Shown: positions 4,096 to 61,080, counted from the stretch's first letter. The stretch is DNA of 64,000 bases from Patescibacteria group bacterium (GCA_040389365.1 JAZKAB010000003.1:7357-71356); one strand, 5' to 3'. A program made the numbers and translations. Notes: a model not told the origin generated them from the sequence alone.

Positions 4096-4632
4096 ATGTA
4101 CGATATACAACCTTTCAAACAAGAAGCTAAGCAGGCGCAGGAATGGCTTGCAAAAGAATATTCGCAAATCCATACCGGCCGTGCAGCGCCCGCACTGCTT
4201 GATGGCGTATCAGTTGAAGCATACGGCTCATTCCAGCCCTTGAAAAACGTTGCATCAACAACTATCGAAGACCCTAAGACGCTTCGCGTCGTGCCATGGG
4301 ACAAGGGCCAGATCAAGGATATCGAGCGCGCACTGTATGCAGCTGACCTTAACTTCTCGATTGCCGTTGACGATGCCGGCATCCGCGTTATTATCCCGGC
4401 CCTCACTACAGAAACTCGCCAGAAGCTGGTAAAGATTGCAAAGGAGCGCCTTGAAGACGCCCGCATCACCATTCGCAAGGCACGCGAAGCGATGCTGAGC
4501 GATCTGAAAGATCAGAAGCTGCCAGAAGACATGATGCGCAACGCCAAAGACGACGTGCAAACGCAGGTTGACGGAGCCAATAGCGACCTGGAAGGCCTGT
4601 TTAATAAAAAGGAGGCAGAAATCCTCAGCTAG
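4096..4632 (+). CDS. frr: ribosome recycling factor
   Basis: SQIHTGRAAPALLDGVSVEAYGS matches the RRF hallmark (KIRTGRAsPslLD). TATACT -10 sits 8 nt upstream of ATG 4096, suggesting a leaderless transcript. Confidence 0.85.
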   Translation: MYDIQPFKQEAKQAQEWLAKEYSQIHTGRAAPALLDGVSVEAYGSFQPLKNVASTTIEDPKTLRVVPWDKGQIKDIERALYAADLNFSIAVDDAGIRVIIPALTTETRQKLVKIAKERLEDARITIRKAREAMLSDLKDQKLPEDMMRNAKDDVQTQVDGANSDLEGLFNKKEAEILS

Positions 4633-4634
4633 TC

Positions 4635-5699
4635 ATGACTATCATTATCTTCATTCTCGTACTGCTCGTTACCGTCATTGCGCATGAATGGGGGCATTTC
4701 TACGTTGCTCGCAAGAGCGGCATGACTGTTGAAGAGTTCGGCTTCGGCATTCCGCCGCGCCTTTTCTCTTGGAAAAAAGGCGGGACAACGTATTCTATTA
4801 ACGCGCTGCCGATTGGCGGGTTCGTAAAGATTGCGGGAGAGAATGGGTTTGAAGATCCAGCTATTGATGCAACGCCTAAAGACAAGCAGTTTGAATCAAA
4901 GCCATGGTACCTGAAGAGCGCAGTGCTTGTTGCGGGCGTAGTCTGCAATATTCTTCTTGCCATTGTCTTGTTTACCGTGGCGTATGCCATCGGCATGCCT
5001 GTTGCGATGGAAGGAGGCACGCCTACGGTTATCAACGTTGTATCAGGATCTCCGGCTGCAAAGAGCGGCCTTGAGGTTGGCGATGTTATTACGGGCGTTT
5101 CGGTCGGTTCAGCTGCCATTGCCGCTGCTCCAAGCACTGAGACCGTGCACGATGCCATTGTTGCCAATGACGGGAACGTGGTATTGAGCGTGAAGCGGGG
5201 GAATAAGGATGTTCCGTTTACCATTGTTCCTGAAGGTACGGGAAGCGCGCGCGTGATTGGCATCGCAATCGAGCCAGTATCGCAGCAGCGCCTGCCGCTC
5301 TTTAGGGCATTTACTGCTGCAGTGCAGCAGACCATCAGCATGGCTGGTCAGATCTTTAGTACACTGGGCAGTCTGATTGCTGGAATCTTTACCCCGAACA
5401 ATACTGCAAGCGCGCTTGTGGGCCCTGTCGGGCTAGCAAAGGAGGTGGGAAGCGCTGCAAGCATTGGCTTTACATATCTCTTGGCGTTTACGGCTGCAAT
5501 TTCAGTAAACCTGGCAGTATTGAACATTATGCCATTTCCAGCCCTTGATGGCGGGCGACTGGTAGTGGTGCTGCTCGAGGCGATTACCAAGCGAAAGTTT
5601 TCCCAGAAAACCGTTGGCATTATTCACGCAATCGGCTTTATCGTGCTTTTGGGCCTCATGGTATTTTTAACAGTAGGGGATGTGCGCAAGCTATTTTAA
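4635..5699 (+). CDS. rseP: RseP-family site-2 zinc metalloprotease (M50) with PDZ domain
   Basis: HEWGHF HExxH motif in the first TM, a PDZ-like middle region, and a C-terminal LDGG motif. GGAGG Shine-Dalgarno precedes the ATG. Confidence 0.85.
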   Translation: MTIIIFILVLLVTVIAHEWGHFYVARKSGMTVEEFGFGIPPRLFSWKKGGTTYSINALPIGGFVKIAGENGFEDPAIDATPKDKQFESKPWYLKSAVLVAGVVCNILLAIVLFTVAYAIGMPVAMEGGTPTVINVVSGSPAAKSGLEVGDVITGVSVGSAAIAAAPSTETVHDAIVANDGNVVLSVKRGNKDVPFTIVPEGTGSARVIGIAIEPVSQQRLPLFRAFTAAVQQTISMAGQIFSTLGSLIAGIFTPNNTASALVGPVGLAKEVGSAASIGFTYLLAFTAAISVNLAVLNIMPFPALDGGRLVVVLLEAITKRKFSQKTVGIIHAIGFIVLLGLMVFLTVGDVRKLF

Positions 5700-36918: not shown

Positions 36919-38745
36919 ATGGAAGATGAAATAGAAGTTAACGATAATTTAAGAGATACTTTTTCAACCGCTAAAAGAGCGGTTGGTTTTGCATACAAGA
37001 ATGAAAAAAGACTCGTAGTATTAACCTTTACATTCGCAATTATCTTAGCGGCTGTTGTCTATCTCCAGGCAACTTCATTTTCCAGTATTGTTAATGAAAT
37101 AGTAAGGATTAAGGAAAATAACCTGGGTATAACCAGAGACCTTATCAATCAGGCTATTCTTCTTGGGGCAACTTTTCTTGTTCCAGCAATTTTGCAAAAC
37201 TTACAGTCTCGGTTTGTAAACGAACTTTCAACAAGGCTAGGAACCCATATCGAAATGCTGCAAATTGATGCGTATTCGGCATTGGATATTGGAACTGTTG
37301 AAGGAACAGAATTTCAGACAAAGCTGCAGCGAGCAAGTAAGTGGGGAACAGGCTCAATTTGGAATGCAGCATATTATGTCCGAATGATCGCTGCAGATAT
37401 CGCAGGCTTTGTTGCATCAGGTTTAGTGTTGTTTTTCATCAATCCATATCTTGTTATCTTGGCGATTGTCGGCGCGTTGCCGTACTATTTTGTTGAAAAT
37501 ATCTATTGCCTGAAGCTATTTCTTCTGTACCATACCCATACAGACGAGAGCCGCATTGGAGGAAATAGAATGCAGTTTTTTAAAGACCCAAAAAAGCTTG
37601 TTGAGATATTGCTTTTTAACATCAAAGGATTGTTTCGAAAGCAAATCAAGGATAATTACGAAATATATGATAACAGCGTTATTAAGGTAGGGCGTCAGCA
37701 GTCCCTTGCGACATTTGGAGCAGATTTTCTTCAGATGGCATGTCTTTTCGCCGCAATTATTTTTGTCACGGTTCAAACTATTAACGGCAATTTGCTCATC
37801 GGATCATTATTTCTAGCCTTTACCGCATACAGAGGGTTTGTAAGTACAAGCCAAGGATTCTTTCAGGATTTTTCAAAGCTAGAAGAGCAGTCACGCTATG
37901 CAAAGCGATGGTTTGATATTTTTGATATTAAGTCAAAAGTTGTTTCAAAGCCTAACGCTGTAAAGCCCGCATGGCTTGTACCGCCACGCATTGAGCTAGA
38001 CAATGTGTCATTTGCCTATCCAGAAAGTGACAAGACAATTCTAAAGAATATTTCAATGACCATTGAAAGCGGAGAAAAGCTTGCAATTGTTGGGCAGAAC
38101 GGTGCAGGAAAGACTACGCTTATTAAGCTTTTATGCAGAGTATATGAACCAACAGAGGGTGCAATTCTAATTGACGGCATTAACCTAAAAGACATCGACC
38201 TAGATTATTGGAGAGAATACCTCGGCGTGCTATTCCAAGATTTCTCTAATTACAATATGACTATTAGGGAGTCTATTGCAATTGCAAAGCCAGATGAGCC
38301 GATTGATGATGAAAAGGTAGTGCTTGCAGCAGAGATGACCGATGCTGACGAATTTATTAAAGAGTTTCCAAACAAATATAACCAGCTTGTATGGAAAGGA
38401 TTTAAGGATGGCGTAGAGCTTTCAAAAGGTCAGTTTCAGCGCATGGCAGTGGCGCGTATCTTCTATAGAGATGCGGCAGTTTCAATTCTCGATGAGCCAA
38501 CATCAGCGATCGATGCTGTTGCAGAGGAAAAAATATTTGACGTGCTTGAGAAGAAAATGGCGGGCAAGACTGTAGTGCTTATTTCTCACCGCTTTAGCAC
38601 TGTTAAGAACGCTGACAAGATTGCGGTTATTGAGCATGGCGAATTGAAAGAAGTCGGGACCCATAAGTCCTTGATGGCCAAGAAAGGCAGATATGAAGAG
38701 CTTTTCAGCATGCAGGCTAACAAGTATTTAGAAACAGAAGCATAG
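36919..38745 (+). CDS. ABC exporter, fused permease-ATPase (608 aa)
   Basis: 6-TM N-terminal half; Walker A GQNGAGKTT, signature LSKGQFQRMAVAR, and Walker B ILDEPTSAID. Confidence 0.85.
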   Translation: MEDEIEVNDNLRDTFSTAKRAVGFAYKNEKRLVVLTFTFAIILAAVVYLQATSFSSIVNEIVRIKENNLGITRDLINQAILLGATFLVPAILQNLQSRFVNELSTRLGTHIEMLQIDAYSALDIGTVEGTEFQTKLQRASKWGTGSIWNAAYYVRMIAADIAGFVASGLVLFFINPYLVILAIVGALPYYFVENIYCLKLFLLYHTHTDESRIGGNRMQFFKDPKKLVEILLFNIKGLFRKQIKDNYEIYDNSVIKVGRQQSLATFGADFLQMACLFAAIIFVTVQTINGNLLIGSLFLAFTAYRGFVSTSQGFFQDFSKLEEQSRYAKRWFDIFDIKSKVVSKPNAVKPAWLVPPRIELDNVSFAYPESDKTILKNISMTIESGEKLAIVGQNGAGKTTLIKLLCRVYEPTEGAILIDGINLKDIDLDYWREYLGVLFQDFSNYNMTIRESIAIAKPDEPIDDEKVVLAAEMTDADEFIKEFPNKYNQLVWKGFKDGVELSKGQFQRMAVARIFYRDAAVSILDEPTSAIDAVAEEKIFDVLEKKMAGKTVVLISHRFSTVKNADKIAVIEHGELKEVGTHKSLMAKKGRYEELFSMQANKYLETEA

Positions 38746-38747
38746 GA

Positions 38748-39095
38748 TTGTCTGTCATGCTGAACTTTAAAGAAGGTACAAAGAAAGGAGCGGTTAAGTA
38801 TTGGCATGCATATGACGGTGATAAAAGAATAGGATATGCGTACATTATTGAAAGTCAGGATCCTAATTTGGGAAAATATTTTTTAATAAATGTGTTTATG
38901 AATAAAACAAGTCAGAGAAAGGGATACGGTTCTCAATTGTTCAGCCGCATAGCTATTCTTAGTGGTTTAAATATGCTGTATGCAAAAAGCAGCAAATCAA
39001 ATACAGGATCTTATAAGGCTGCGTTAAAAGCAGGTTATAGTGAGATTATAAAGCACGCGTTTAAGCAGCGAGTGATGATATGGAAGAAAAACTAA
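38748..39095 (+). CDS. GNAT-like acetyltransferase fragment (C-terminal half only), 115 aa
   Basis: Motif A-like QRKGYGSQLF. Paralogous to the downstream frameshifted copy (shared AYDGDKxxGY). AT-rich. Confidence 0.4.
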   Translation: MSVMLNFKEGTKKGAVKYWHAYDGDKRIGYAYIIESQDPNLGKYFLINVFMNKTSQRKGYGSQLFSRIAILSGLNMLYAKSSKSNTGSYKAALKAGYSEIIKHAFKQRVMIWKKN

Positions 39096-39106
39096 TACCT
39101 ATGATT

Positions 39107-39742
39107 ATAAAAAGGCTAGACAGTCTTGAAAAAATAGAGAATGTAATTGAACAGATGAAACCTGTTGCAACTTTCATGTCGAATCCAGTAATTATTGATA
39201 ATTTCTTATGCTTAAAGATGGTGATATAAGAAGGAAATATTATTCTGCGGAACGTAATAATATTCAGCTGACCATACGTGATTTTTGCGACAAAGATACA
39301 GAAAAATTAGAATTATTTTGGAAGGAGTGGTCAGAGTATAAATCAACTACAAATGAAAAATTTGTCTCACATACTAAAAATGACCAACGCTTTTTTGATT
39401 GAAATTATTCAAATCATTTTTTTTGGAAAGTGTGCCTATGATGGTGACAAGCTGGTAGGGTACACAATTGGAATTAAGAGTGAAGACGGATTGTGCCTCG
39501 GTGCTTTTAATAAGTGTCTGCGTGGGTATACACAATTAGGATTACAGCTTTTTATAGAAAGAATTAAGCAGGCAAAAATGTTAGGTTTCAAAAGAATTTC
39601 TATTGCAATTGTCAACAATGATTTTAAGAAACAATTTAAGAAAAGCGGTGAATATATCCCGATATATGGATATGAACTATATAGAGATGATGATTTTAAA
39701 ACGCTAAGTCCTAATGGCTATACGTCTGTATTGATAAGATAG
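39107..39742 (+). pseudogene. frameshifted GNAT-like acetyltransferase gene (three overlapping frame pieces)
   Basis: Pieces 39107..39238, 39208..39402 and 39353..39742 together would give a ~210-aa GNAT. The frame changes coincide with T6/T8 homopolymer runs (cattttttttgg). Confidence 0.4.
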
Positions 39743-39818
39743 AGCGATCGTCTTTTAATCAAGAATACACATATTTGATTTTATTTAAATATGTGCTATA
39801 ATAATAAAAAATTAAAAG

Positions 39819-40286
39819 ATGAATACAATAGAAATTATTAACAAAGCAGTTCTAACTGAACAGGTGCTTCTACATGGAAGCCCTAAGGTTATAGATGAAA
39901 TTCATCCTCATTATGCTGATGATGAGATGGCAGTTTGCGCTACCCCTTACTCTGAAATCGCAATCTTCATGGCAATTATTAATTCATGCAGACCGGGTAA
40001 TTGTGGTTTTAAATCCACCATTACATCGAAAAAATGTTTTGTGGAATTCATGATTTGCGACCGCATAATTGCTTCATTGCTTTCAAAAGAAGTGGTGGGG
40101 TATGTATATGCGCTTGATTCGCGTGGATTTAGCCTGTGGCGGGGATTTGAATACCGTTCATATGAGCCGCTATACTCGTTGCAAAGATTTACAGTCAAAA
40201 AGGAAAATCTTCCATTTTATCCAATTTTAGGACAGAACACTTATACTGTTACCCTGAAGAGAGAAATGGCAGCTATGTTTAACTAA
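39819..40286 (+). CDS. hypothetical protein, 155 aa (AT-rich islet)
   Basis: Intact ORF with low-GC codon usage. No motif. Confidence 0.4.
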   Translation: MNTIEIINKAVLTEQVLLHGSPKVIDEIHPHYADDEMAVCATPYSEIAIFMAIINSCRPGNCGFKSTITSKKCFVEFMICDRIIASLLSKEVVGYVYALDSRGFSLWRGFEYRSYEPLYSLQRFTVKKENLPFYPILGQNTYTVTLKREMAAMFN

Positions 40287-40287
40287 T

Positions 40288-40318
40288 TAAAAGCCCCTTG
40301 CAAAAGGGCTTTTTTTAT
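40288..40318 (+). terminator. rho-independent terminator AAAAGCCCCTTGCAAAAGGGCTTTTTTT
   Basis: Hairpin plus T-run. Confidence 0.65.
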
Positions 40319-51593: not shown

Positions 51594-51813
51594 TGTCCTT
51601 GCTGTCGCGGTCTCCTTCAAGCTCCTGCTGAAGCTCGTCTTTTGCGCCGTCTTGGCCTGCAAAGCTTTCTTCGCTCTGATCCTGCTCGATTGCGTCAAGC
51701 GGCTCGCCATCCTTGCCGTCAATCTGATCAAGATCCTCTAGATTTGCATATTCTGCGTTAGTATCAATCTCCTGATGCACAGGTGTCTTTTTTACGTTGT
51801 CGTCTTCATTCAT
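51586..51813 (-). CDS. small highly acidic protein, 75 aa
   Basis: D/E-rich (EDLDQIDGKDGEPLDAIEQDQSEE). Ends 8 nt inside the yihY start, so possible translational coupling. Confidence 0.3.
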   Translation of the reverse strand: MNEDDNVKKTPVHQEIDTNAEYANLEDLDQIDGKDGEPLDAIEQDQSEESFAGQDGAKDELQQELEGDRDSKDNE

Positions 51814-51883
51814 ATGCCTTCCTCAATTAATTGCTATACCTAAAGTATATACGAAAAGCCTAAAATATGCTTTACTGCTATAT

Positions 51884-52135
51884 ATGCATGATCACACAAA
51901 CAGAGCCCTTATTATCCTAATGATCGTTATTATTATAATTGTCGCAATTATCCTCTTTGTACCACGAGGCTATTATTACTACCCAGCAAACATTGGCACG
52001 ACTCGCGTACAGCGCACCGTGCCTGTTACGACAATACGCCCTGCAGTTATCGAGACTCATAGCTATACCACAACTCCCGTTACGACATACCAGCAGACAA
52101 CGACAACTGAGACAACTAATACCTCATCTCAATAG
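51884..52135 (+). CDS. small Tyr/Thr-rich single-TM protein (~83 aa)
   Basis: MHDHTNRALIILMIVIIIIVAIILFVPRGYYYYPAN...TTTTETTNTSSQ. Shares a YYYP motif with the 12077 peptide. Confidence 0.3.
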   Translation: MHDHTNRALIILMIVIIIIVAIILFVPRGYYYYPANIGTTRVQRTVPVTTIRPAVIETHSYTTTPVTTYQQTTTTETTNTSSQ

Positions 52136-53966
52136 CAGCAAGAAACACACTCATTCGATCTCGCTCAGCAAGCGCTATCTTAACCGCATGCTCAAGGGGA
52201 GCAATGAGATCCCAAAGAAAGGCTACGTCAGAAATGACCGTAGTCTTTTTTAATGCACTTTTAGCAAATGCGCAATGTGCAGCGATCAGAGCTGAGCAAT
52301 GATCGATCTCATGCTGCCAAAAGAGCTCCTGCAGCTCCTGCTCGTCTTTTGCAAGATCGATTTGCCTTCCTTTTTTCCATGCACGAAGCATATGAGCGCT
52401 CACGCTGTTAAGAAATCCGTTCTGCAGATCAAGCAGCCAGTCATGCGCATCGTCATTGAGCTGGCGCGCGATGAGATAGTGGATGAAGAATTCTTGCAGT
52501 ATGGCCGCGTCGCCACCCCGATGAGCCAGCATGCAGGCAAATAGTATTGGTATTGCATGGCCGAGCGACTTTTGCGCCAGTACCGCATAGTCGCCATAGT
52601 CAGGCAACGCTTCTGGAAGCACGAGTACATTATTCGCATTTTCTATACGGCACTGCTCATACTCCCAGGCAGTTGCTCCTGCAATGCCAGAAAGTATGTT
52701 TGAAAATAACCGCGTGTCGACCTGAAAAGAGGTGATAATTGTCTCTACCTTTCTAACGCAAAGTATTGCCAAAGGCAATAAGCCAACCGCATCTTCGCCA
52801 TCGACAATGTCGTCGCATATGCCATAGCCGATCCAGCCCAGTACTCCAAGCGCAGAAAGAGAAATAGCATTTTCTTCAGGAAGAAGCTGGGATGAAAAGC
52901 GATAGGGCAGCAAGACTACGTCGGACATATCCAAGGCATTCATTGCGTTGTCTAACTGCTGTTGTATCGCAGGAGAAGAATCGCTAAAAAGCGCTGAACA
53001 GTGCTGCCGTACTGCAGTTATAAGGTGAGGGTCAGTCTGCTCTGTGTTCGAGTGTCCTGAATATTGTATGGTCTTTTCGTATAGCGCAAGCGCCTCAACA
53101 CAGCATGCGCTTAGATGGGCACTGCAGCTGCTATGTACAGGGAATCCTTCTGCATACGATTCAATTATAAAGGGCGACTGAGGCCATTGCCCATCGACTG
53201 AAGAGTCGAGCAGGAATTGCACTCCTTCAGATACCTCAGTAGCTGAAACTCCCAGTCGCAACAGCGAAGATACAGCAAGCGCAGTACGCAGCGGCGTATC
53301 CCAATGACCGTTGCTGTTTCTTCTACCTACTATCTGCCTAACAAGCACATTCTTATCATGCCCCGCGTATGCTCTTGATATAAAATATAGTACGACAATA
53401 GGATCGTCATAATACTTAGATGCATGCGATTCGCTTAGGCATTGCTTCTCAATATATTTATCAAGTGTCTGCTGCTGAATTCCAAGCGACGCAAGCAGAA
53501 AAGCAATAGTGCTGTTAACAACCACATCGATATCATGCCACTCTGGCGACCGAGCATCGAGTATCCATGTTTGATATGGCCCGCCCGGCTTCTCCTCGTT
53601 GGCGATAAGCAATTGAGCCAGTCGTGCTAGATGCGTTTCAGTTACAAGCTCAGGCTGAAAGGAGTGAATAGCAAGCAGTGCAAGCGCCGTATCATCAAGA
53701 TCGTCAGGGTACGGCACAGAGGCTTCTTCGTCAGAGCCCCTTTGCCAATAATTGCAGGAAGAGGCATTGCTGAGCTGAGACAAGAGAAACCGGGCAGCCT
53801 TGTCTCGCATAGCGCTGTCAGAAACTGCAGTGCAGATAAGACTTGTATAGAATGTTGTAGGTTTGCCCTGGTCGCTTAGGAACGAACCGTTGCCTTGCTG
53901 CTGGGAGGCAATAAAGCGTAGCGCATCATTGCGCACCCTGTTTATGCGTCGTGTTTGGTCTGTCAT
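52116..53966 (-). CDS. two-domain terpene-synthase-like protein: N-terminal class II cyclase-like alpha/alpha-toroid domain (DxDDTA) + C-terminal squalene/phytoene-synthase-like class I domain (two Asp-rich motifs), ~617 aa
   Basis: PYPDDLDDTALALLAI matches the class II terpene cyclase DxDDTA protonation motif. QW-like repeats QQQGNGSF, NSNGHWDT, DGQWPQ are present. C-terminal motifs YGICDDIVDGED and IARQLNDDAHDWLLDLQNG align to trans-IPPS head-to-head motifs (PSY: RRTDELVDG / QLTNILRDVGEDARRG). The track ORF extends to 54167; the start at Met MTDQTRR (53966) overlaps the kinase 3' end by 41 nt. Confidence 0.55.
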   Translation of the reverse strand: MTDQTRRINRVRNDALRFIASQQQGNGSFLSDQGKPTTFYTSLICTAVSDSAMRDKAARFLLSQLSNASSCNYWQRGSDEEASVPYPDDLDDTALALLAIHSFQPELVTETHLARLAQLLIANEEKPGGPYQTWILDARSPEWHDIDVVVNSTIAFLLASLGIQQQTLDKYIEKQCLSESHASKYYDDPIVVLYFISRAYAGHDKNVLVRQIVGRRNSNGHWDTPLRTALAVSSLLRLGVSATEVSEGVQFLLDSSVDGQWPQSPFIIESYAEGFPVHSSCSAHLSACCVEALALYEKTIQYSGHSNTEQTDPHLITAVRQHCSALFSDSSPAIQQQLDNAMNALDMSDVVLLPYRFSSQLLPEENAISLSALGVLGWIGYGICDDIVDGEDAVGLLPLAILCVRKVETIITSFQVDTRLFSNILSGIAGATAWEYEQCRIENANNVLVLPEALPDYGDYAVLAQKSLGHAIPILFACMLAHRGGDAAILQEFFIHYLIARQLNDDAHDWLLDLQNGFLNSVSAHMLRAWKKGRQIDLAKDEQELQELFWQHEIDHCSALIAAHCAFAKSALKKTTVISDVAFLWDLIAPLEHAVKIALAERDRMSVFLAAIEMRY

Positions 53967-55407
53967 GGGTAGCGAGAAGAGGAATTCGGATGATAAATGT
54001 TGTGCCTTTATTCTCAGTACTAGTAACGGCAATAGATCCCTTGAAATAGCGCTCGATAATTTCTTTTGTCTGCGACAGGCCAATTCCAGTGCCCTTGCTG
54101 TAAGACTTGGTAGTGAAGAGCGGGTTGAAAATCGAGCCAATATGGTCTGGCGATATGCCGCAGCCATTGTCTCGAATGATAAGCACTATGCCATTTTTAT
54201 TTGATGCTTTTCTTAACAAAATATTAACGATACTCGTGCGATTGTTATTCTCGCATGCATCAACTGCATTCATGAGCAAATTGAGCACTGTCTGATAGAA
54301 CTTAAGCGCCGGGCCGTGCAGCTCAATTGCATCTTTGGCCTTGAATCGAAACTGTACCGATGCCTCTCGCGCCCTAAATTGCAGCATATCCATCGCATCG
54401 CGAATTTCTTTCTCAGGAGAGAAGACACTATGCGCGTCATCGCTTGCAATCTGCTTGCGCACTGACTGTATATGGTTTCCTAAGCGCTTGCTTGCTGCAA
54501 CTGCCTTGCCAACATACTGCTGCACTTCTGGCAAATGTTCCGGTGAGCCTTCCAGGCGAGAAACGTTAATGACAACGACATTGAGCACATTCATCAGGTC
54601 ATGAAATATGCCCGAAGAAAGCTTGCCGAATTCCGCAAAGCGGTACAGCTGCGAAACCTTGTCTTCCTGAGCCCCTTTCAATTCTCTGGTGCGCTCTTCA
54701 ACTTTGATTTCCAACAAGTTTCTTTCTTCAAGCAGTGCCTTTTCTGAGGCGCGTGCCCGCTTGAGCGAACGCTCAATCTCTCTATTCGAAAGCCAGGAAA
54801 CGCCAGTTATGACAAACAGCACGACTGAGAGCTCGAACGGATCGCTGATGCTTATCGGCGCATGCTTCCATGCTAATACTGGATTTATAACCGCATGCAG
54901 CTGAAGATACGTAATGCCGATAATTGAAAGCGCAATGACGGAAGCTGCCAGAAACGCAAAGCGAGTCGAGATCAGAATGCTCGATATGACAATAATCACA
55001 ATGTAGCTGATAGTTACCAGCGGCAGCTCAACGCCCCAATGGATTGCGCCATAAGTCGTAAGCACAAAGTAGAAGAGGAGGAATATAAGGCCAGAAGTTT
55101 TGTAATAGCCCTTTCGGGACAGGAGCAGCAGGGAACCAAATACCAAAATAAACAGATTGAAGCTTATGAGAGATATGCCGTGGTAATGTGCGCCTTGCTT
55201 AATGGTATCTATTGCAATGATGCTGTGCAGGAAAAGCAGAAAGGGGATTATGCAGCACAGAATAGTGTTGAGAATAAACTCATACCGCTGCGTATCTTCA
55301 TCAGATGATTTCGGCGCTATGAAAGCTGCATACATATACTCAATACTGCGCCCGAATAAGCTTTCGGAAAATGAGCGGAGTTTTCTTATTCTAGGGCGAG
55401 TATTCAT
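53926..55407 (-). CDS. sensor histidine kinase (polytopic membrane N-terminus, HisKA, HATPase_c)
   Basis: ~6 N-terminal TM helices, an H-box region (SSGIFHDLMNVLN), and G-boxes (IRDNGCGI, GTGIGLSQTKEII). Confidence 0.8.
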   Translation of the reverse strand: MNTRPRIRKLRSFSESLFGRSIEYMYAAFIAPKSSDEDTQRYEFILNTILCCIIPFLLFLHSIIAIDTIKQGAHYHGISLISFNLFILVFGSLLLLSRKGYYKTSGLIFLLFYFVLTTYGAIHWGVELPLVTISYIVIIVISSILISTRFAFLAASVIALSIIGITYLQLHAVINPVLAWKHAPISISDPFELSVVLFVITGVSWLSNREIERSLKRARASEKALLEERNLLEIKVEERTRELKGAQEDKVSQLYRFAEFGKLSSGIFHDLMNVLNVVVINVSRLEGSPEHLPEVQQYVGKAVAASKRLGNHIQSVRKQIASDDAHSVFSPEKEIRDAMDMLQFRAREASVQFRFKAKDAIELHGPALKFYQTVLNLLMNAVDACENNNRTSIVNILLRKASNKNGIVLIIRDNGCGISPDHIGSIFNPLFTTKSYSKGTGIGLSQTKEIIERYFKGSIAVTSTENKGTTFIIRIPLLATHDRPNTTHKQGAQ

Positions 55408-55426
55408 TATAGGTAGCGAGCTGTTG

Positions 55427-55633
55427 CTATTCGTCTCCAGCCCACGGGGTAAAGGCGGACTGCTGGTAGGCGGCAGCTCTTATGGAGTCTGCGCTGCGCG
55501 CCGAAGGGTCAATGAGCATGCGCTCGATTGCTTTTTTCATACTGAAGAATGATACAGGCTGCGAGCTATTCGACAATAGCTCGAAGTCCAGTGTATACAA
55601 ACGCATATCAATTGGAACCGAAGATTTTATCAT
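55427..55633 (-). CDS. 68-aa hydrophilic sORF translationally coupled (TAATG) to the response-regulator gene
   Basis: MIKSSVPIDMRLYTLDFELLSNSSQPV... Start overlaps the RR stop codon. Ends 20 nt before the kinase ATG. Confidence 0.4.
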   Translation of the reverse strand: MIKSSVPIDMRLYTLDFELLSNSSQPVSFFSMKKAIERMLIDPSARSADSIRAAAYQQSAFTPWAGDE

Positions 55634-56307
55634 TATTTCATCAAGTCTATCTTGTATCCTCTTCCTGCAACGCTATGAATAAGCTTGGTCTTGTCCTTAT
55701 GCTCGATCTTCTTGCGCAGGTTCAGGATATGAGTCTCAATAGTATTAGAAAACGGATCCAAGTCAACATCCCAAATATGCTCCATCAGCATGCCTCTGGT
55801 AACGACAACGCCAGCGTGCTTCATAAGATATTCAAGCAGCGAAAATTCCTTGCGGGTAAGGTACACGGGAACGCCTGACCGAGATGCGGTTTGCCGAATG
55901 GTATCGAGCTCAAGATCGTCAAGCGTGAGAATTGACTGCTGCATCATAACCGGGCGCCGTACGACGGCCTGAATGCGGGCATAGATTTCGTCAAAGTACA
56001 GCGGCTTGGAGACATAATCATCGGCTCCAATAGTGAGCCCTCGAACCTTGTAGGGAACAGCGTCAGTAACAGATATCATTATGACTCTCGTATTCTTTCC
56101 GTTTTCCCTTATTTCTTCCAGTACTGAAAATCCGTTCATGTCAGGCAGGCCATAGTCAAGAAGGATAACATCATAGTCATTGGTCTTGGCAAGGTATACG
56201 CCTTTCTTTCCTGTGCCGACGCAGTCAACTGCAATGCCTTTTTCTAATAATCGCTCAGTTAGGAATAATTGCGTGTCTTTGTCGTCCTCGATAATCAGTA
56301 TTCTCAT
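55633..56307 (-). CDS. OmpR/PhoB-family response regulator
   Basis: Receiver domain (MRILIIEDD, conserved D in VILLDYGLPDMNG) and a C-terminal winged-helix Trans_reg_C. ATG at 56307 preferred over the track TTG at 56340. Confidence 0.85.
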   Translation of the reverse strand: MRILIIEDDKDTQLFLTERLLEKGIAVDCVGTGKKGVYLAKTNDYDVILLDYGLPDMNGFSVLEEIRENGKNTRVIMISVTDAVPYKVRGLTIGADDYVSKPLYFDEIYARIQAVVRRPVMMQQSILTLDDLELDTIRQTASRSGVPVYLTRKEFSLLEYLMKHAGVVVTRGMLMEHIWDVDLDPFSNTIETHILNLRKKIEHKDKTKLIHSVAGRGYKIDLMK

Positions 56308-56396
56308 ATTGGTGTGCTCAAAGTATAAAATACTGAGCAAGAAAAATCGACATAAAACCGTGCATAACTAGCCTAAAACCTTTATCTTTTCTTGAT

Positions 56397-56458: not shown

Positions 56459-56887
56459 ATGAAGCAATCAAAAGAAACATTCGACATACAAGAATTTCAA
56501 GATTTGTTATATCTTTTCAAGAAGACCTTTAGCGCCCTGTATAAGAAGGAGACCAGCGGCCTGCACTGCTCGGCTTCGCATATGGAAATCATGCATTATA
56601 TTGCCGAGCACGACTCAGCCAGCATGAAAGACTTGGCCGGATATCTTCGCATTACGCCGCCCTCAGTCACCACGCTCATTGATGCAATGGTTGAAAACGG
56701 CCTCGTGCGACGTGAAGCAGCTGCAGCAGACCGGCGCACCGTTCGCGTGTCGCTGACGCCGAAGGCAACCAGCACATACAAGCAGCTGCAAAAAAAGAAA
56801 ACCATCTTGCTCGCTAAACTGCTAAAGAAAATAAGCACCGAACAGAAAGAACAGTTATCAGCAATTATCAAAGCACTCGTACAATAA
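56459..56887 (+). CDS. MarR-family transcriptional regulator
   Basis: wHTH with LRITPPSVTTLIDAMVENGLVRR. Confidence 0.8.
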   Translation: MKQSKETFDIQEFQDLLYLFKKTFSALYKKETSGLHCSASHMEIMHYIAEHDSASMKDLAGYLRITPPSVTTLIDAMVENGLVRREAAAADRRTVRVSLTPKATSTYKQLQKKKTILLAKLLKKISTEQKEQLSAIIKALVQ

Positions 56888-56888
56888 T

Positions 56889-57863
56889 ATGAAACATTTT
56901 TTTACAACCCCAAAGACCGCCATTCCATTCGTTGCAGCAATTGCAATCATTATTGGCATTATCGGATTTCAAACGCTCGGCAAAGCCCCTGCAGTATCAT
57001 TGCCTGACAACACTCAGACGCTTAACGGCACCGTCGTTACAAACTCTTCCGATGACGTATACGACCTCGCTTTTCCCAATGCAGGACGCGTCGCGTCAGT
57101 ATCCGTGAAGGTTGGCGACCATGTTGCCAAGGGCGAAACGCTCGCTACGCTCGATGCAGGAGCTGCGCTTGGCGCAGTAACGCAGGCAAAAGGAGCGCTT
57201 GAGCTTGCCCAGGCGCAATATGCCTCTCAAGACGTGCAGTATGCCAATGCTAAGAAGCAGCAGGATGTACTGGTACAGAATGCATACCGCACGATGCTTT
57301 CAAGCGGACTGACTGCAACGCCGTCAGTTCAGGATGACAATCATCTTCCAGCAATTTCAGGAACGTATGCGTGCGGCAACGAAGGCAGCTACGAAGTATC
57401 GACCTATCCCTCTGGCGCAACTTCTGGCTTTTCATTTACCTATACAGGCCTTGAAAAAGGCGGCGGTCAGGTAACGTTCAGCACCCCTCAGCCGCTCGGC
57501 AGCTGCGGCCTCTTCATTCAGTTCGCGCAAGGCTTTGCTGGCGCGACCAAATGGACTGTCGCGATTCCAAACACCAAGTCGGCAAGCTACGTAACTAACA
57601 AGAATGCCTATGACCTTGCTGTATCAACCCGAGATCAGGTACTCAACCAGTATGCGGCTAACCTGGGAGAAAATTCAAACGCAAACACCGCCAAGGCGGC
57701 AGTTGCGAGCGCCCAGGGCGTATACCAGGCAGCGCTTGGAGCGTACAAGAACAATGTTATTGCTGCTCCAATCGGAGGCACGGTAACATTCATTGACGCA
57801 GACCTTAAGACCGGACAGTCAGTATTGGCAAACAAGGCAATTATTAGCATCTCAACAAAATAA
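56889..57863 (+). CDS. HlyD/EmrA-family periplasmic adaptor (membrane fusion protein), 324 aa
   Basis: N-terminal TM, biotinyl-lipoyl-like hairpin (GRVASVSVKVGDHVAKGETLATLD), coiled coil. Confidence 0.65.
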   Translation: MKHFFTTPKTAIPFVAAIAIIIGIIGFQTLGKAPAVSLPDNTQTLNGTVVTNSSDDVYDLAFPNAGRVASVSVKVGDHVAKGETLATLDAGAALGAVTQAKGALELAQAQYASQDVQYANAKKQQDVLVQNAYRTMLSSGLTATPSVQDDNHLPAISGTYACGNEGSYEVSTYPSGATSGFSFTYTGLEKGGGQVTFSTPQPLGSCGLFIQFAQGFAGATKWTVAIPNTKSASYVTNKNAYDLAVSTRDQVLNQYAANLGENSNANTAKAAVASAQGVYQAALGAYKNNVIAAPIGGTVTFIDADLKTGQSVLANKAIISISTK

Positions 57864-57865
57864 AT

Positions 57866-58501
57866 ATGGAAGAATCAACAAAGAAAAGCGTATTTGCCCA
57901 ACCGGGCGTTCAGGCCGTCACGGGAATGCTCGTTATCGCATTGCTGCTCGGCGGCGCATTGTATTGGAAGGCGCAATCAACGCATATAAGCATTGAAAAG
58001 TCAGTTATTACGGCACCGACTATTGCAATCGGCCCTCAGGCCGGAGGCATTCTTGCTGAAGTATACGTGCGCCCAGGCGATACAGTATCAGCAAGCCAGC
58101 AGGTTGCGCGCGTAGGATCTGAAGTATTGTCTGCAGCAGTTGCAGGCACTGTCATCAGCGTGCAGAACACGCCGGGACAGGTGGTGATGCCGGGAGCGGC
58201 AGTAGTAGCAATGATCGTACCGTCTGAGCTTCGAGTTGTCGGCACTATAGCCGAAGACAAGGGGCTGAGAGACATTGCAGTCGGGCAGCCCGTCTCCTTT
58301 ACCGTCGACGCATTCGGCAGCACTGAGTACACTGGTATCGTTGACGAGGTAAGCCCAACGTCTGACGAGTCTGGCGTAGCATTCAGCATTTCAGACAAGC
58401 GCGAGGTCAAGAGCTTCGCCATCAAGGTGCGATTCGACACGGCTGCGCATCCTGAATTCAAGAACGGCATGTCAGCCAAGATGAACGTCTATATAAAATA
58501 A
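57866..58501 (+). CDS. HlyD-family adaptor protein (short), 211 aa
   Basis: N-terminal TM, lipoyl-like motif (GILAEVYVRPGDTVSASQQVARV), C-terminal beta-barrel region. Confidence 0.6.
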   Translation: MEESTKKSVFAQPGVQAVTGMLVIALLLGGALYWKAQSTHISIEKSVITAPTIAIGPQAGGILAEVYVRPGDTVSASQQVARVGSEVLSAAVAGTVISVQNTPGQVVMPGAAVVAMIVPSELRVVGTIAEDKGLRDIAVGQPVSFTVDAFGSTEYTGIVDEVSPTSDESGVAFSISDKREVKSFAIKVRFDTAAHPEFKNGMSAKMNVYIK

Positions 58502-58502
58502 T

Positions 58503-59999
58503 ATGGAAGAAGGGGAGAAGACAGAAAAGAAGAGCAATCTCCGCTGGTGGATTCTGCTGACAGTTATTGTCGGCACGTTTCTTGGCCGTCTTGACCAGAC
58601 CATCGTTAACCTGGCATTGCCCGATATCATTAATGACTTCGGCATTAGCGTAAGCGCAGCCGGCTGGATTGCGACGGCGTACATCCTCGCCAATGCAGTG
58701 TTCGTGCCTATCTGGGGCAAGCTGGGCGACACAATCGGCCGCAAGAAGGTATATATCTTAGGGTTCGGCATCTTCATTGTTGGCTCAGTGCTCGCAGGCT
58801 TTGCCTGGAACCTGCCGTCAATGATTGTTTTTCGAGTCATTCAGGCAATTGCCGGATCAGCAGACTATCCGACAGCCATGGCAATCTTGGCTGTTACGTT
58901 TCGAGAGGGAAAAGAACGCGCGCAAGCGCTCGGCATCTGGTCGAGCTCTTTTGCTGCGGCCAGCGTATTCGGCCCGCTCTTGGGCGGCCCATTGATCGAC
59001 AGCTTTGGCTGGCGCTCAGTCTTTCTTATCAATCTGCCTGTCGGCATTATCGGCCTTCTTATGGCCATGCGCTTTATCAACGAATCACGTTCCGAAAAGA
59101 AGCCGGAGCACTTTGACTGGTGGGGGGCAGTAACATTAGGAGGCATGCTTTCTGCATTGGTGTTGGTATTAGACAAAGGGAGCGAATGGGGCTGGGTATC
59201 GGCAACGAGCATGCTCTGCTATTTCAGCATCGTCGTTCTGACTGCGCTCTTTATCCGCATCGAGCAGCGAGTGCCAGAACCTATCGTCGACCTGCGCTTC
59301 TTCAAGATTCCTGCATTCGTCAATACGCTGATAAACAATTTTGTGGTATTCATGGGCATGATGGGCGGGCTGTTCCTGCTGCCGGTATTTGCGCAGACGT
59401 TCCTCGGGTACAATGCAACGCAGACAGGCTATCTCTTTATGCCTATGGCTGCAGCCCTAATGCTTGCCGCGCCGATTGGCGGCGCCATGATGGGCAAAGT
59501 GCAGACGCGCTACGTTATCTTCGCAAGTACATTGGTTGCAGCGCTCGGACTGTTCCTGTTTTCATTCCTCGATCCGAAGTCTACCGCGCTTGATATCATG
59601 ATTCCGCTGAGCATCATGGCCTTCGGCCTTGGCTTCGGCATGGCGCAGCGCACGAACGTTATCGCGTCAGTTGTCGATCCGCATGAAATCGGCATCGCGT
59701 CATCGATTTTAGCATTGGCGCGAAACGTTGCCGGAGCATTCGGCATCGCAGTGTTCGGCACTATTCTAACGAATCGTATTAGCCACAACATATTGAGCAT
59801 CAACAGCTTCAGTATCTTGCGCAGCCACCTGCCGCTTGATATTCAAAAGTACATTGCGCTGGTTGAGCTCAAGGCGCAGATCAACGCGTACAATTACGTA
59901 TTCGTTATCGCCAGCCTTATCGTTGCAATTGGCGCATTTGCCATCCTGAGCCTGAAGCTCAAGAACGAGCGAAGAGACGTGACGGTGCATGTAGAATAA
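58503..59999 (+). CDS. MFS drug:H+ antiporter (DHA2/EmrB-like, 14 TM)
   Basis: MFS motif A GKLGDTIGRKKV, 14 predicted TM helices, 498 aa. Confidence 0.85.
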   Translation: MEEGEKTEKKSNLRWWILLTVIVGTFLGRLDQTIVNLALPDIINDFGISVSAAGWIATAYILANAVFVPIWGKLGDTIGRKKVYILGFGIFIVGSVLAGFAWNLPSMIVFRVIQAIAGSADYPTAMAILAVTFREGKERAQALGIWSSSFAAASVFGPLLGGPLIDSFGWRSVFLINLPVGIIGLLMAMRFINESRSEKKPEHFDWWGAVTLGGMLSALVLVLDKGSEWGWVSATSMLCYFSIVVLTALFIRIEQRVPEPIVDLRFFKIPAFVNTLINNFVVFMGMMGGLFLLPVFAQTFLGYNATQTGYLFMPMAAALMLAAPIGGAMMGKVQTRYVIFASTLVAALGLFLFSFLDPKSTALDIMIPLSIMAFGLGFGMAQRTNVIASVVDPHEIGIASSILALARNVAGAFGIAVFGTILTNRISHNILSINSFSILRSHLPLDIQKYIALVELKAQINAYNYVFVIASLIVAIGAFAILSLKLKNERRDVTVHVE

Positions 60000-60066: not shown

Positions 60067-61080
60067 ATGATTGAAATTGTAGAAGAAACGATGCTTATGA
60101 AAAAGCATTGCACTGAAGAAGTGCAGGAAGAATTAAAAGATGTAGTCACCCCTCATGGGTGGACGCTGGAAAAGGCTATTCAGTCAGGAATTGATAATCC
60201 TGACTCAAGCATTGGCGTGTATGCAGGGGATCCTGAATCGTATGATCAGCTTGCACCGTTATTTGACCCTATTATTAAGGAGTACCACAAGTACGACATG
60301 AGCGGTCACAAAAGTGATTTTTCACTTGAAGGGCTGAGTGTTGAAAACCTGGATCCGGAAGGCAAGTATGTAGTATCTACGCGCATTCGCGTAGGAAGAA
60401 ACTTTGCAAAGTTTGCTTTTCCTTCAGCTATTTCTACAGAAGACCGAGAGGCTTTGGAGAAAGAGATTGTTGCTGTTCTTGAACAGCTTCCAGGCGAGTT
60501 AAAAGGCCGTTACATTCCATTGGAAGGCATGTCTCCATCTGACACCGACCAAATGATCACGGATCATTTCTTGTTTAAGCAGGGAGATCGCTTCTTGGAA
60601 AGTGCGGGCGTTAATCGCGATTGGCCAAAAAATCGCGGTATCTTCTTTTCAGAAAACAAGAAATTTCTTGTATGGGTTTCTGAAGAAGATAGCATGCGCA
60701 TCATTAGCATGCAGCAGGGTGCTGACATTGCAGAGGTATTCATGCGATTGAAGACAGCGCTTGATTTTATCAATGAGCACATTCAGTTTGCATTTGATTC
60801 AGTTCGAGGGTATTACACGACATGTCCTACCAATCTCGGAACTGCAATGAGAGCTTCAGTGCACATCAAGATTCCTAAGTTCTCTAACCGAGAGAACTTC
60901 AAGGCAATTTGCGGAACGCTCGGCTTGTCTATTCGCGGGATTCATGGAGAACATTCTGAATCAAGCGATGGCATTTACGACATTTCAAACAAGCGCCGTT
61001 TGGGCATTTCTGAAAGAGAAATTTACGAGCAGCTATACGCTGGCGTAAAGAAGCTTATTGAGATCGAATCTTCGCTGTAA
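60067..61080 (+). CDS. phosphagen (arginine) kinase, animal-type ATP:guanido phosphotransferase, 337 aa
   Basis: CPTNLGT active-site signature. NEEDxxRIISMQ-like SEEDSMRIISMQ, DHFLFKQGDRFL, GEHSESSDGIYDISNKRRLG and an N-terminal guanidino-specificity region (SIGVYAGDPESY..LFDPIIKEYH) align to arthropod arginine kinase. This is a full two-domain AK, not a McsB-type protein arginine kinase. Confidence 0.85.
   Translation: MIEIVEETMLMKKHCTEEVQEELKDVVTPHGWTLEKAIQSGIDNPDSSIGVYAGDPESYDQLAPLFDPIIKEYHKYDMSGHKSDFSLEGLSVENLDPEGKYVVSTRIRVGRNFAKFAFPSAISTEDREALEKEIVAVLEQLPGELKGRYIPLEGMSPSDTDQMITDHFLFKQGDRFLESAGVNRDWPKNRGIFFSENKKFLVWVSEEDSMRIISMQQGADIAEVFMRLKTALDFINEHIQFAFDSVRGYYTTCPTNLGTAMRASVHIKIPKFSNRENFKAICGTLGLSIRGIHGEHSESSDGIYDISNKRRLGISEREIYEQLYAGVKKLIEIESSL

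Follow-up and report, generated by a model that had tools for sequence, protein, structure and literature searches.

Gene organization of the locus

The 64-kb window, the whole stretch of DNA that was analysed, carries four co-directional genes on its minus strand. They encode a response regulator (RR) of the OmpR/PhoB type, a small peptide, a sensor histidine kinase and a bifunctional enzyme, here termed X. The open reading frames are as an earlier note on this DNA described them, and the operon-like unit that it claimed is borne out. The RR gene (55633..56307) encodes 224 amino acids when read from the ATG at 56307, or 235 if translation begins at a TTG further upstream, at 56340. The RR stop and the start of a 68-amino-acid open reading frame (55427-55633) have the sequence TAATG in common, as reported, and this small frame is separated from the kinase ATG by 19 nt rather than 20. 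The kinase gene (53926..55407; 493 amino acids) overlaps the terminal gene by the expected 41 nt, kinase stop included. Gene X (52116..53966) encodes 616 and not 617 amino acids: the start claimed at 53969 is a Pro codon, and the true ATG is at 53966. Residue numbers of X count from this Met, and alignment outputs are one higher.

Enzyme X has two domains, both on the same strand as the other genes. The N-domain (residues 1-304; 53055..53966) is a single-beta-domain class II terpene cyclase, and the C-domain (residues 313-616; 52119..53030) is a prenyltransferase-like domain of the trans-IPPS fold.

A conserved peptide with a single Trp

The small open reading frame was treated as incidental in the earlier note, but its last 37 codons (55427..55540) encode a peptide, MKKAIERMLIDPSARSADSIRAAAYQQSAFTPWAGDE, that is conserved in nearly all related loci, which makes this frame the key element of the cassette. 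The N-terminal extension that makes up the rest of the 68-amino-acid frame displays no conservation in these loci. A homologous small frame was found in the spacer between the RR and kinase genes in all six loci first examined. The peptide was then detected with an HMM in 71 of 80 species-representative loci, and in two further loci by eye.

The 74 unique peptides are 34-41 amino acids long and form a nearly gapless alignment. All have the same layout, which consists of a conserved leader, xxLTDxxxR, a variable middle region and an invariant Trp near the C-terminus. All 74 have this Trp in the same alignment column, and 72 contain no other Trp; in 58 the residue before it is Pro, and 1-7 residues come after it. 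The middle region of many peptides is hydrophobic and rich in Ala, Leu and Val. In the window peptide, Trp33 (codon at 55442..55444) is the sole Trp and the proposed prenyl acceptor. A C-terminal Trp is also a feature of ComX (PMC4008528), StheX (10.64898/2026.08.29.745113) and PalX (PMC10853753); the window peptide does not match the ComX family, PF05952. A conserved Trp-containing precursor peptide would explain the presence of both the enzyme and the kinase.

The kinase and response regulator

The RR displays Pfam Response_reg (8.8e-26) and Trans_reg_C (1.4e-24) domains, and its matches in NCBIfam are at subfamily level only. GerE is below cutoff (E 0.0073), and the DNA-binding domain is of the OmpR type and not the LuxR type.

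The kinase has approximately six hydrophobic segments at residues 41-203 in a hydropathy scan and no large extracytoplasmic domain. This membrane part is followed by a coiled linker, an H-box (FHDLMN) and a HATPase_c domain (5.5e-21). Pfam also gives a weak match to 6TM_PilS. HisKA_3 (PF07730) is not matched by the kinase, and a weak HisKA match (PF00512) is found in its relatives. Orthologous kinases of five other loci have the membrane domain in common, at 36-56% identity. A membrane domain of about six helices without a large external domain fits what is expected of a receptor for a lipophilic peptide, and receptors of the ComP type are also made up of successive transmembrane helices (PMC4008528).

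The class II cyclase domain of X

As had been proposed, the N-domain is a true class II terpene cyclase and has the DxDD acid; fold, motif and profile homology agree. It displays the alpha/alpha-toroid beta-domain fold and contains PYPDDLDDTALALLAI, the DxDD region that the earlier note pointed out. The general-acid motif, DDLDDT, is at residues 88-93 (53688..53705). In an alignment of 71 homologues (26-83% identity), D89 and D91 are invariant, and D91 aligns with D323, the catalytic residue of drimenol synthase (AsDMS; PMC12232559). The family profile finds the PDB sequences 9mhs_B (E 1.8e-17) and 9m7d_A (E 4.6e-16); the single sequence scores 15.6 bits against Pfam SQHop_cyclase_C, under the 26.1-bit cutoff. 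QW-like repeats had also been suggested, and two such motifs are present in the family consensus, QxxxGxF near residue 23 and YLxxxQxxGxW near residue 255.

The N-domain is predicted to cyclise its substrate by protonation. In AsDMS the phosphate is held by R368, R370 and R415 (PMC12232559), a three-Arg site that is specific to AsDMS and not general to class II cyclases. At these positions X has the near-invariant residues W143, D145 and P184. Judged from the alignment, this replacement suggests a different substrate head group and would fit a substrate that has no free diphosphate, such as a prenylated peptide.

The isoprenoid-synthase-fold domain of X

The C-domain has an all-helical isoprenoid-synthase fold with two conserved Asp-rich motifs, again in agreement with the original proposal; both CDDIVDGED and QLNDDAHDWLLDLQNG are present. 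The fold is closest to those of trans-polyprenyl diphosphate synthases (e.g., 3mzv, 3tc1 and 1wmw) and of the indole prenyltransferase Ord1 (9v4g). The first motif, DDIVDGE, is at residues 385-391 (52794..52814) and the second, QLNDDAHDWLLD, at residues 502-513 (52428..52463). Among the 71 homologues, D385 and D389 of the first motif are invariant and its second Asp varies; position 391, E in X, has an acidic residue in 94% of sequences. In the second motif Q502, D505, D506, D509 and D513 never vary, H508 and W510 hardly do, and the preceding position, 501, is always basic. Loss of the Asp residues in homologues had been named as grounds for abandoning the enzyme assignment. All three Asp motifs of X, that of the N-domain included, are instead invariant, and such conservation at 26-83% identity is, as the alignment indicates, far beyond chance.

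The arrangement D385-x3-D389 corresponds to a FARM, and Q502-x2-D505-D506-x2-D509 to a SARM DDxxD with a preceding Gln. In trans-IDS-like Trp prenyltransferases, a Gln shortly before the SARM is described as the feature that recognises Trp (PMC13290415). The C-domain has only three conserved basic positions: R405, K/R466 and R/K501. In IPPS proteins the sequence RRG follows the first Asp motif; it is absent from the C-domain of X.

No significant match to the C-domain was found in comparisons with ComQ, PalQ, Ord1, polyprenyl_synt, Pfam, NCBIfam or PDB sequences, the profile search of PDB sequences giving no IPPS match. PF00348 is not matched by the window protein and is reached by one of 24 family members at E 0.0028, under threshold. 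The likeness to squalene/phytoene synthases suggested in the earlier note does not hold, as there is no match to PF00494 and no structural similarity to SQS, CrtM or PSY. Assignment of the C-domain as a prenyltransferase is thus a prediction based on fold, motifs and gene context.

Sub-threshold matches to Terpene_syn_C_2 are seen in three of 24 C-domains. The spacing of the second motif, D-x3-D-x3-D, is that of the class I (N/D)Dxx(S/T)xxxE triad (motif as given in PMC12232559). A full second DDxxD with further Asp residues at +4 and +8 could point to ionisation chemistry of the class I type instead.

Conservation, linkage and distribution

Relatives of X are encoded in at least 281 species-representative genomes, and in the sequence searches run they are found only in Patescibacteria (CPR bacteria), across which the cassette is conserved. 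With the C-domain profile, 1.84 billion proteins yield 1,912 clusters at 50% identity, and protein clusters of this identity level with profile E values up to 1e-30 number more than 1,200.

The link to a dedicated two-component system, also part of the earlier description, is real and conserved. Among 66 species-representative loci with enough upstream sequence, 62 have the kinase gene directly next to X, 64 have the peptide and 56 have an orthologous regulator upstream of the kinase. The peptide is situated between regulator and kinase in 51, and the four parts are together in at least 51. The kinase gene abuts or overlaps X, with overlaps of 4-44 nt in all loci examined. The outer neighbours of the cassette differ between loci, and the same parts remain together in three rearranged loci (L058, L061 and L082). 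In one locus, L045, the peptide is directly upstream of X and there is no two-component system. The cell-wall genes MraY, FtsW and MurG are near the cassette in the window and in locus L001. The neighbourhood of the cassette has no conserved gene for an exporter, a leader peptidase or immunity.

In 18 of 83 loci the gene next to X encodes a canonical polyprenyl synthetase (PF00348, E 2.4e-49), and the two genes often overlap by 4 nt. The neighbouring synthetase would supply the prenyl donor, and its presence speaks against chain elongation by the C-domain of X. Among the approximately 45 open reading frames of the window, no gene for isoprenoid precursors or an IPPS was found. It had been argued that a reduced genome is unlikely to invest in isoprenoid chemistry. 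This argument is weak, given the adjacent synthetase and the mevalonate-pathway and IPPS genes that CPR bacteria carry (PMC6107057).

Relation to known systems

The domain architecture was thought to be undescribed. However, maturases in which a trans-IDS-like prenyltransferase is fused to an MstE-like cyclase were reported in 2024, the ChrPC-type bifunctional RiPP maturases (Hubrich et al., Chem 2024, as summarised in PMC13290415). On the description in the accessible text of that source, to which the comparison is confined, ChrPC resembles X in several ways. Prenyltransferase and monodomain class II cyclase are parts of one polypeptide, the gene for a ribosomal peptide with a Trp accompanies that of the enzyme, and the second Asp-rich motif is closely preceded by a conserved Gln. 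X has its cyclase at the N-terminus and its transferase at the C-terminus. Unlike what that text describes for ChrPC, the peptide here is short (34-41 amino acids) with its own conserved leader, and the cassette is tied to a histidine kinase and RR and was found only in Patescibacteria in the searches run.

ComQXPA (PMC4008528, PMC5331326) also has an IPPS-fold enzyme, a variable small precursor with Trp near the C-terminus, a polytopic kinase and an RR, encoded by four adjacent genes on one strand with frequent overlaps. The gene order is Q-X-P-A in ComQXPA and A-X-P-Q here. ComQ is a single-domain PF00348 protein with a degenerate NDxxx second motif, whereas X matches neither PF00348 nor the NCBIfam ComQ family, has a full DDxxD and carries the additional cyclase domain. 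ComX is 52-73 amino acids long, belongs to PF05952 and has its Trp within the last 5-10 residues; in the peptides described here the Trp is 1-7 residues from the C-terminus. ComP is of the HisKA_3 type and ComA of the LuxR/GerE type. As the present kinase is non-HisKA_3 and the regulator OmpR-type, they are not homologous to ComP and ComA beyond the superfamily level. A census in 2014 found no ComQXPA-type loci outside Firmicutes (PMC4008528).

In PalPXQ of Paenibacillus alvei (PMC10853753) and StheQ-StheX of Sphaerobacter (10.64898/2026.08.29.745113), a Trp prenyltransferase of the IPPS superfamily is encoded beside a precursor with a C-terminal or near-C-terminal Trp, and PalPXQ includes a histidine kinase as well. 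PalQ and StheQ lack the cyclase domain of X, and their precursors differ from the present peptide, PalX being of the NHLP type and StheX 69 amino acids in length; no sequence similarity of these enzymes to X is detectable.

The N-domain is of the type represented by MstE (PDB 6sbb), a monodomain class II cyclase, and by AsDMS (PDB 9mhs/9m7d; PMC12232559, PMC12365925). In AsDMS the class II beta domain is joined to a HAD phosphatase and in X to an IPPS-fold domain, and the head group bound is probably different, the phosphate-binding Arg residues being replaced by W, D and P. Trans-polyprenyl synthases and Ord1 resemble the C-domain in fold but not significantly in sequence, and in many loci X has a separate canonical IPPS next door.

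Proposed function and alternatives

The best reading, by analogy, is that of a pheromone/RiPP cassette comparable to ComQXPA, with a maturase like the ChrPC-type prenyltransferase-cyclase fusions. On balance, the locus probably represents a four-gene peptide-signal cassette consisting of RR, 37-amino-acid precursor, polytopic membrane kinase and bifunctional maturase X. X most likely attaches an isoprenoid to the single Trp of the neighbouring peptide and cyclises it. The resulting product is probably perceived by the membrane kinase and regulator, and the cassette would then be a candidate cell-to-cell signalling system.

In the proposed mechanism, the C-domain would bind an allylic prenyl diphosphate (C10-C20) via Mg2+ held by D385/D389 and D505/D506/D509, and would transfer the prenyl group to the indole of Trp33, as ComQ, PalQ and the ChrPC P domain do. 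D91 of the N-domain would then protonate the distal double bond of the attached chain and bring about cyclisation, as in the C domains of ChrPC and NctPC. After removal of the leader, xxLTDxxxR, the lipophilic terpenoid-peptide would leave the cell. The six-helix membrane domain of the kinase would sense this product and the kinase would phosphorylate the OmpR-type regulator, which would change transcription, probably also of the cassette itself.

The same enzymology could also yield an effector. The product might be a RiPP that acts as a membrane-active antimicrobial, a host-membrane anchor or an adhesion factor for episymbiosis, with the two-component system only regulating or auto-inducing its formation, as NisRK does for nisin. 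Known ChrPC and NctPC products are treated as RiPP natural products in the accessible text of PMC13290415, the middle region of many peptides is suitably hydrophobic, and L045 has peptide and X without a two-component system. An effector is nevertheless unlikely, as the kinase is so regularly adjacent to X and stays with the peptide even where loci are rearranged, the neighbourhood has no conserved immunity or transporter genes, and the compact four-gene unit resembles ComQXPA (PMC4008528). The model of the earlier note, quite improbable now, has X as a free-terpenoid synthase, a class II cyclase joined to a class I or head-to-head (SQS/PSY-like) enzyme. X would form a specialised terpenoid or membrane lipid under its own two-component control, and the small open reading frame would be irrelevant. 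The invariant DxDD and Asp-rich motifs, the class I triad spacing (PMC12232559), the sub-threshold Terpene_syn_C_2 matches and the adjacent polyprenyl synthetase all fit this model.

Two further readings give X a different task. It may combine a prenyl-diphosphate synthase with a class II cyclase, as fungal PvCPS does, the C-domain converting IPP and DMAPP to FPP or GGPP and the N-domain forming a drimenyl- or copalyl-type diphosphate. An IPPS that binds two diphosphate substrates is expected to have more than three conserved basic positions, and X has only three. The separate canonical synthetase in an operon with X in many loci would be redundant, PF00348 is not matched and the peptide is left unexplained, all of which makes this reading very improbable. 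Least credible is that X is a non-catalytic or lipid-sensing kinase accessory, one that binds, for example, undecaprenyl or other polyprenyl phosphates, reports envelope status and is translationally coupled to give a stoichiometric complex. The kinase/X overlaps are in keeping with such coupling, and MraY, FtsW and MurG are nearby in two loci. The general-acid and metal-binding Asp residues, however, are invariant across 26-83% identity, which argues for catalysis; moreover, the outer neighbourhood is not conserved, and the peptide and adjacent IPPS are unexplained.

The signalling reading can be extended to a peptide-pheromone quorum-sensing system throughout the Patescibacteria phylum. A cyclase-prenyltransferase would place a cyclised terpenoid on the only Trp, and an intramembrane-sensing kinase and OmpR-type regulator would read it, as a non-homologous counterpart of ComQXPA. 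This wider proposal is tentative, though it could well be correct. Patescibacteria comprise a large share of bacterial diversity and live attached to other microbes, and little is known of how their behaviour is regulated; in recent overviews of their biology nothing was found on quorum sensing, two-component systems or prenylation. The enzyme type is known, and the Patescibacteria-wide, two-component-linked version appears to be undescribed in the literature searched. With its presence in at least 281 species-level genomes, the cassette represents a major uncharacterised module of the group. If the proposal is true, signalling between CPR cells, or between symbiont and host, gains a candidate that can be tested directly. 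It would be the first dedicated system of cell-cell signalling to be proposed for episymbionts of this ultrasmall size, and a second, independently assembled case of ComQXPA logic outside Firmicutes. The variable peptide cores could then define pherotypes, and the family would provide a large natural library of terpenoid-peptide conjugates together with compact two-domain maturases for peptide lipidation. Reduced genomes would, in addition, put isoprenoid chemistry to uses beyond the cell-wall lipid carrier.

The region upstream of the peptide gene

A perfect 8-bp inverted repeat, GAGCTATT-GTCG-AATAGCTC, is found on the minus strand at 55563..55582, between the RR gene and the peptide start. 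It overlaps a weak promoter-like site, TTGTCG-16-TATCAT (55576-55549), and is a possible operator, promoter or hairpin. A strong Shine-Dalgarno sequence, GAAAGGAGGTGA, stands before the peptide ATG in more than 20 loci. A TCGAATA core situated 32-42 nt upstream of the peptide ATG is found again in 10 related loci, and a related GGTCGA motif is present in other loci, those without the Shine-Dalgarno sequence.

Gene layout of the cassette

The four minus-strand ORFs of the earlier note are all present as described: a response regulator (RR), a 68-aa ORF, a histidine kinase and a terminal enzyme gene, X. The RR (55633-56307, minus strand; 224 aa from its ATG) is OmpR-type, with matches to Response_reg (8.8e-26) and Trans_reg_C (1.4e-24). 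Its stop overlaps the start of the 68-aa ORF in TAATG, and the kinase (53926-55407, minus strand; 493 aa, HATPase_c 5.5e-21) overlaps X by 41 nt, both as previously stated. Two boundaries shift slightly. The gap between the end of the 68-aa ORF and the kinase ATG is 19 nt rather than 20, and X (52116-53966, minus strand) starts at the ATG at 53966, not at 53969, to give a product of 616 aa. Every motif quoted in the note is found in this product, for which a protein search finds an identical entry on record from a Patescibacteria metagenome-assembled genome.

The putative precursor peptide

The short ORF is the decisive part of the locus. Its last 37 codons (55427-55540, minus strand) encode the peptide MKKAIERMLIDPSARSADSIRAAAYQQSAFTPWAGDE. 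In a comparison of six loci, with X proteins 28-100% identical, each RR-kinase spacer contains an ORF of the same type, 35-38 aa long. An HMM from these six loci finds a matching ORF in most of 90 loci, almost always between the RR and the kinase and on the same strand; after one iteration it is positive in 71 of 80 species-representative loci. Inspection by eye added two further peptides, in L054 and L088. The other seven loci comprise six that are cut off upstream and L051, which has about 1.3 kb of upstream sequence and no adjacent kinase.

The 74 unique peptides are 34-41 aa long and align almost without gaps. They have in common a leader, M-x-x-[LIV]-[LIV]-x-x-[LIV]-L-T-[DSN]-x-x-x-R, which is followed by a variable middle. 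A Trp occupies one aligned column in all 74 and is the sole Trp in 72; Pro precedes it in 58, and 1-7 residues follow it. A strong Shine-Dalgarno sequence, GAAAGGAGGTGA, lies ahead of the peptide ATG in more than 20 loci. With its conserved leader, variable middle, invariant Trp and strong Shine-Dalgarno sequence, the short ORF is, on this pattern, a real gene built like a modified-peptide precursor. That it extends the kinase at the N-terminus, or arises from faulty annotation, is rejected: the N-terminus of the kinase is of full length without it, and the conservation of the peptide is in a different frame, behind a Shine-Dalgarno sequence of its own.

A perfect inverted repeat, GAGCTATT-GTCG-AATAGCTC (55563-55582, minus strand), is located 23-42 nt upstream of the peptide ATG. 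It is recorded in the window, in L001, L010-L017 and L032 and in others, and 10 related loci keep its TCGAATA core at -32 to -42. Many other loci, those without a Shine-Dalgarno sequence, display a related motif, (A)AAGGTCGA(A/G), upstream of the peptide gene. The inverted repeat may act as an operator for the RR, as a promoter element or as an RNA hairpin; candidate sites for RR binding are the palindrome GAGCTATTGTCGAATAGCTC and, ahead of the peptide gene, the GGTCGA motif. A scan for promoters and terminators performed no better than shuffled controls, and the predicted RNA fold of the RR-peptide spacer is marginal (z = -1.9).

The two domains of enzyme X

A protein search detected 74 full-length relatives of X, about 600-670 aa long, all unnamed or annotated as "hypothetical"; those with a named source are all Patescibacterial. 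In an alignment of 71 sequences with 26-83% identity (residues numbered here from the true Met; the alignment outputs are one higher), invariant positions are D89 and D91 of PYPDDLDDT, D385 and D389 of the first Asp motif, and Q502, D505, D506, D509 and D513 of the second. An AlphaFold2 model built from the same alignment is confident and displays two domains (pLDDT 94, pTM 0.86). Searches of the whole protein against Pfam and NCBIfam gave a sub-threshold match to SQHop_cyclase_C only, with no match in the C-terminal half.

The N-domain (residues 1-304) is assigned as a class II cyclase domain. D91 aligns to D323, the general acid of the drimenol synthase AsDMS, and the aromatic lining of the AsDMS pocket is kept; the phosphate-binding R368, R370 and R415 of AsDMS are replaced by W, D and P. 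Since the acid and the aromatic residues are retained, the domain is by its sequence a real class II cyclase domain, and since the Arg residues are replaced, it probably does not hold a free diphosphate in the manner of AsDMS.

The C-domain (residues 313-616) has features of the isoprenoid-synthase superfamily. It has no significant match in Pfam, NCBIfam or PDB sequences, and because the hits of a profile search across all PDB sequences were no better than noise (E above 0.1), the assignment had to rest on structure. Sub-threshold matches among the 24 family members scanned all lie within the superfamily: Terpene_syn_C_2 in three, and polyprenyl_synt, Terpene_synth_C and FPPsyn in one each. 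SQS_PSY is not matched in any of the 24, even below threshold. The conserved pattern resembles the site at which an IPPS-type enzyme binds its allylic diphosphate: it combines D-x3-D with R/K-Q-x2-DDxxD, and a (K/R)S pair stands 39 residues ahead of the second motif. This supports an isoprenoid enzyme of the alpha fold that carries two Asp motifs, and does not support the earlier note's alignment to squalene/phytoene synthases. Assignment as SQS/PSY or as a class I cyclase is judged unlikely on the fold ranking together with the absent profile matches.

In a word-indexed protein search the C-domain profile found only Patescibacteria proteins and fragments; ChrPC, ComQ and other outside relatives lay beyond its reach. 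Against 1.84 billion proteins it matched 1,912 clusters at 50% identity; among the matches listed, almost all of the 150 best of these clusters have the fused length.

Linkage and spread

The cassette is widespread and biologically interesting. In a scan of one genome per species, at least 281 genomes carry a relative of X. Complete genomes with the cassette include CP025011.1 and OZ246417.1. The 80 loci retrieved are from Paceibacterota, Saccharibacteria and Nomura-, Levyi-, Davies-, Morani-, Doudna-, Shapiro- and Colwellbacteria, together with some bins of doubtful label. Sixty-six loci have 3.3 kb or more of upstream sequence; among them the kinase abuts X in 62, the peptide is present in 64 and the regulator in 56, and the peptide lies between regulator and kinase in 51. 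The kinases are orthologous and have a six-helix membrane domain in common; the outer neighbours of the cassette vary by locus. One Saccharimonadales group has a different order (kinase and peptide leftwards, X rightwards, RR leftwards), with the same parts still adjacent. L045 retains the peptide alone, directly upstream of X. A kinase that appears broken into two ORFs, possibly by frameshift or pseudogenisation, lies upstream of X in L034 and L056, where peptide and X are intact.

Clustering of all ORFs from 83 loci revealed one further recurrent neighbour, a canonical polyprenyl synthetase (PF00348, E 2.4e-49), in 18 (including L020, L026, L036, L039, L046, L066, L070, L075, L078, L086, L087 and L090). 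It is usually directly downstream of X, often with a 4-nt overlap with the X stop, and is absent from the window's own locus.

Comparison with known systems and proposed mechanism

In the Bacillus pheromone locus ComQXPA, ComP/ComA sense a ComX peptide that ComQ has prenylated on its Trp (PMC4008528, PMC5331326). Related Trp-prenylation pairs are PalQ/PalX, with the kinase PalP (PMC10853753), and StheQ/StheX (10.64898/2026.08.29.745113). The cassette likewise has an enzyme of the IPPS fold and a small peptide whose Trp lies near the C-terminus, along with a polytopic kinase and a regulator. Unlike ComQXPA, however, it has no match to PF00348, PF05952 or HisKA_3 and only a sub-threshold match to GerE; the gene order also differs, and the RR is OmpR-type. 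By homology it is not a ComQXPA locus. By analogy it would work like one, though put together from other family members.

NctPC and ChrPC (Hubrich et al., 2024; described in a 2026 review, PMC13290415) each join a prenyltransferase domain to an MstE-like (monodomain class II) cyclase domain. In ChrPC a trans-IDS-like transferase domain prenylates Trp with C10-C20 donors, and the cyclase domain then cyclises the chain; the review names as the mark of Trp recognition a conserved Gln that immediately precedes the second Asp motif (PMC13290415). This Gln is invariant in X. By an architecture-level definition X fits the ChrPC-type maturases, and the enzyme type has been known since 2024. No paper was found that joins ComQ or ComQXPA with Patescibacteria, nor a relevant one on terpene cyclases and Patescibacteria. 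The primary 2024 ChrPC/NctPC paper may list CPR homologues. Two recent overviews of Patescibacteria biology do not mention quorum sensing, two-component systems or prenylation.

From the matched ComQXPA components, the ChrPC-type fusion and the invariant Gln, a three-step scheme is proposed, whereby the C-domain of X would prenylate Trp33 of the peptide, the N-domain would cyclise the attached chain, and the lipophilic product would be the ligand of the adjacent kinase. Two features agree with this order: the N-domain has lost the diphosphate-binding Arg residues, and in some loci a separate canonical IPPS is encoded beside X. The same chemistry could instead yield an effector lipopeptide whose production the two-component system merely regulates; sequence cannot separate this from the signalling scheme, and it is regarded as a less likely alternative.

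Other readings leave parts of the locus unaccounted for. The free-terpenoid synthase of the earlier note is improbable, as it leaves the peptide unexplained. That X combines an IPPS with a cyclase, as in PvCPS, explains neither the peptide nor the adjacent IPPS and is very improbable. Least credible is a lipid-sensing accessory protein of the kinase, in which both the peptide and the invariant catalytic residues would have no explanation.

Neighbouring genes in the window

Pfam scans of about 45 other window ORFs detected no mevalonate, MEP, IPPS or UppS genes. At 4003-5699 (plus strand) frr is directly followed by a gene for an RseP-type M50 protease. In other bacteria this pair is often separated by uppS, cdsA and dxr, all of which are missing here.

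Divergent from the cassette, at 56459-59999 (plus strand), are genes for a MarR regulator, two YknX-like periplasmic adaptor proteins and an MFS transporter. The arrangement is also found in L001, where X is 43% identical, and not in more distant loci. These genes may form an efflux system able to export the peptide in this clade, or may be unrelated. A 112-aa ORF with a hydrophobic segment (51797-52135, plus strand) converges on X and overlaps its 3' end by 20 nt; gene callers place an 83-aa product at this site, and a small family of about 84 aa occupies the same place in four loci.

The 337-aa product of 60067-61080 (plus strand) carries the two phosphagen (arginine/creatine) kinase domains (ATP-gua_PtransN 3.3e-25, ATP-gua_Ptrans 1.8e-71). 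Two-domain phosphagen kinases are typical of eukaryotes and rare in bacteria, so that one in a reduced Patescibacteria genome is unexpected. The stretch 38000-40300 has a GC content of 0.36, compared with about 0.47 elsewhere, and may be acquired DNA; two small ORFs within it (39353-39742 and 39819-40286) belong to no Pfam family.
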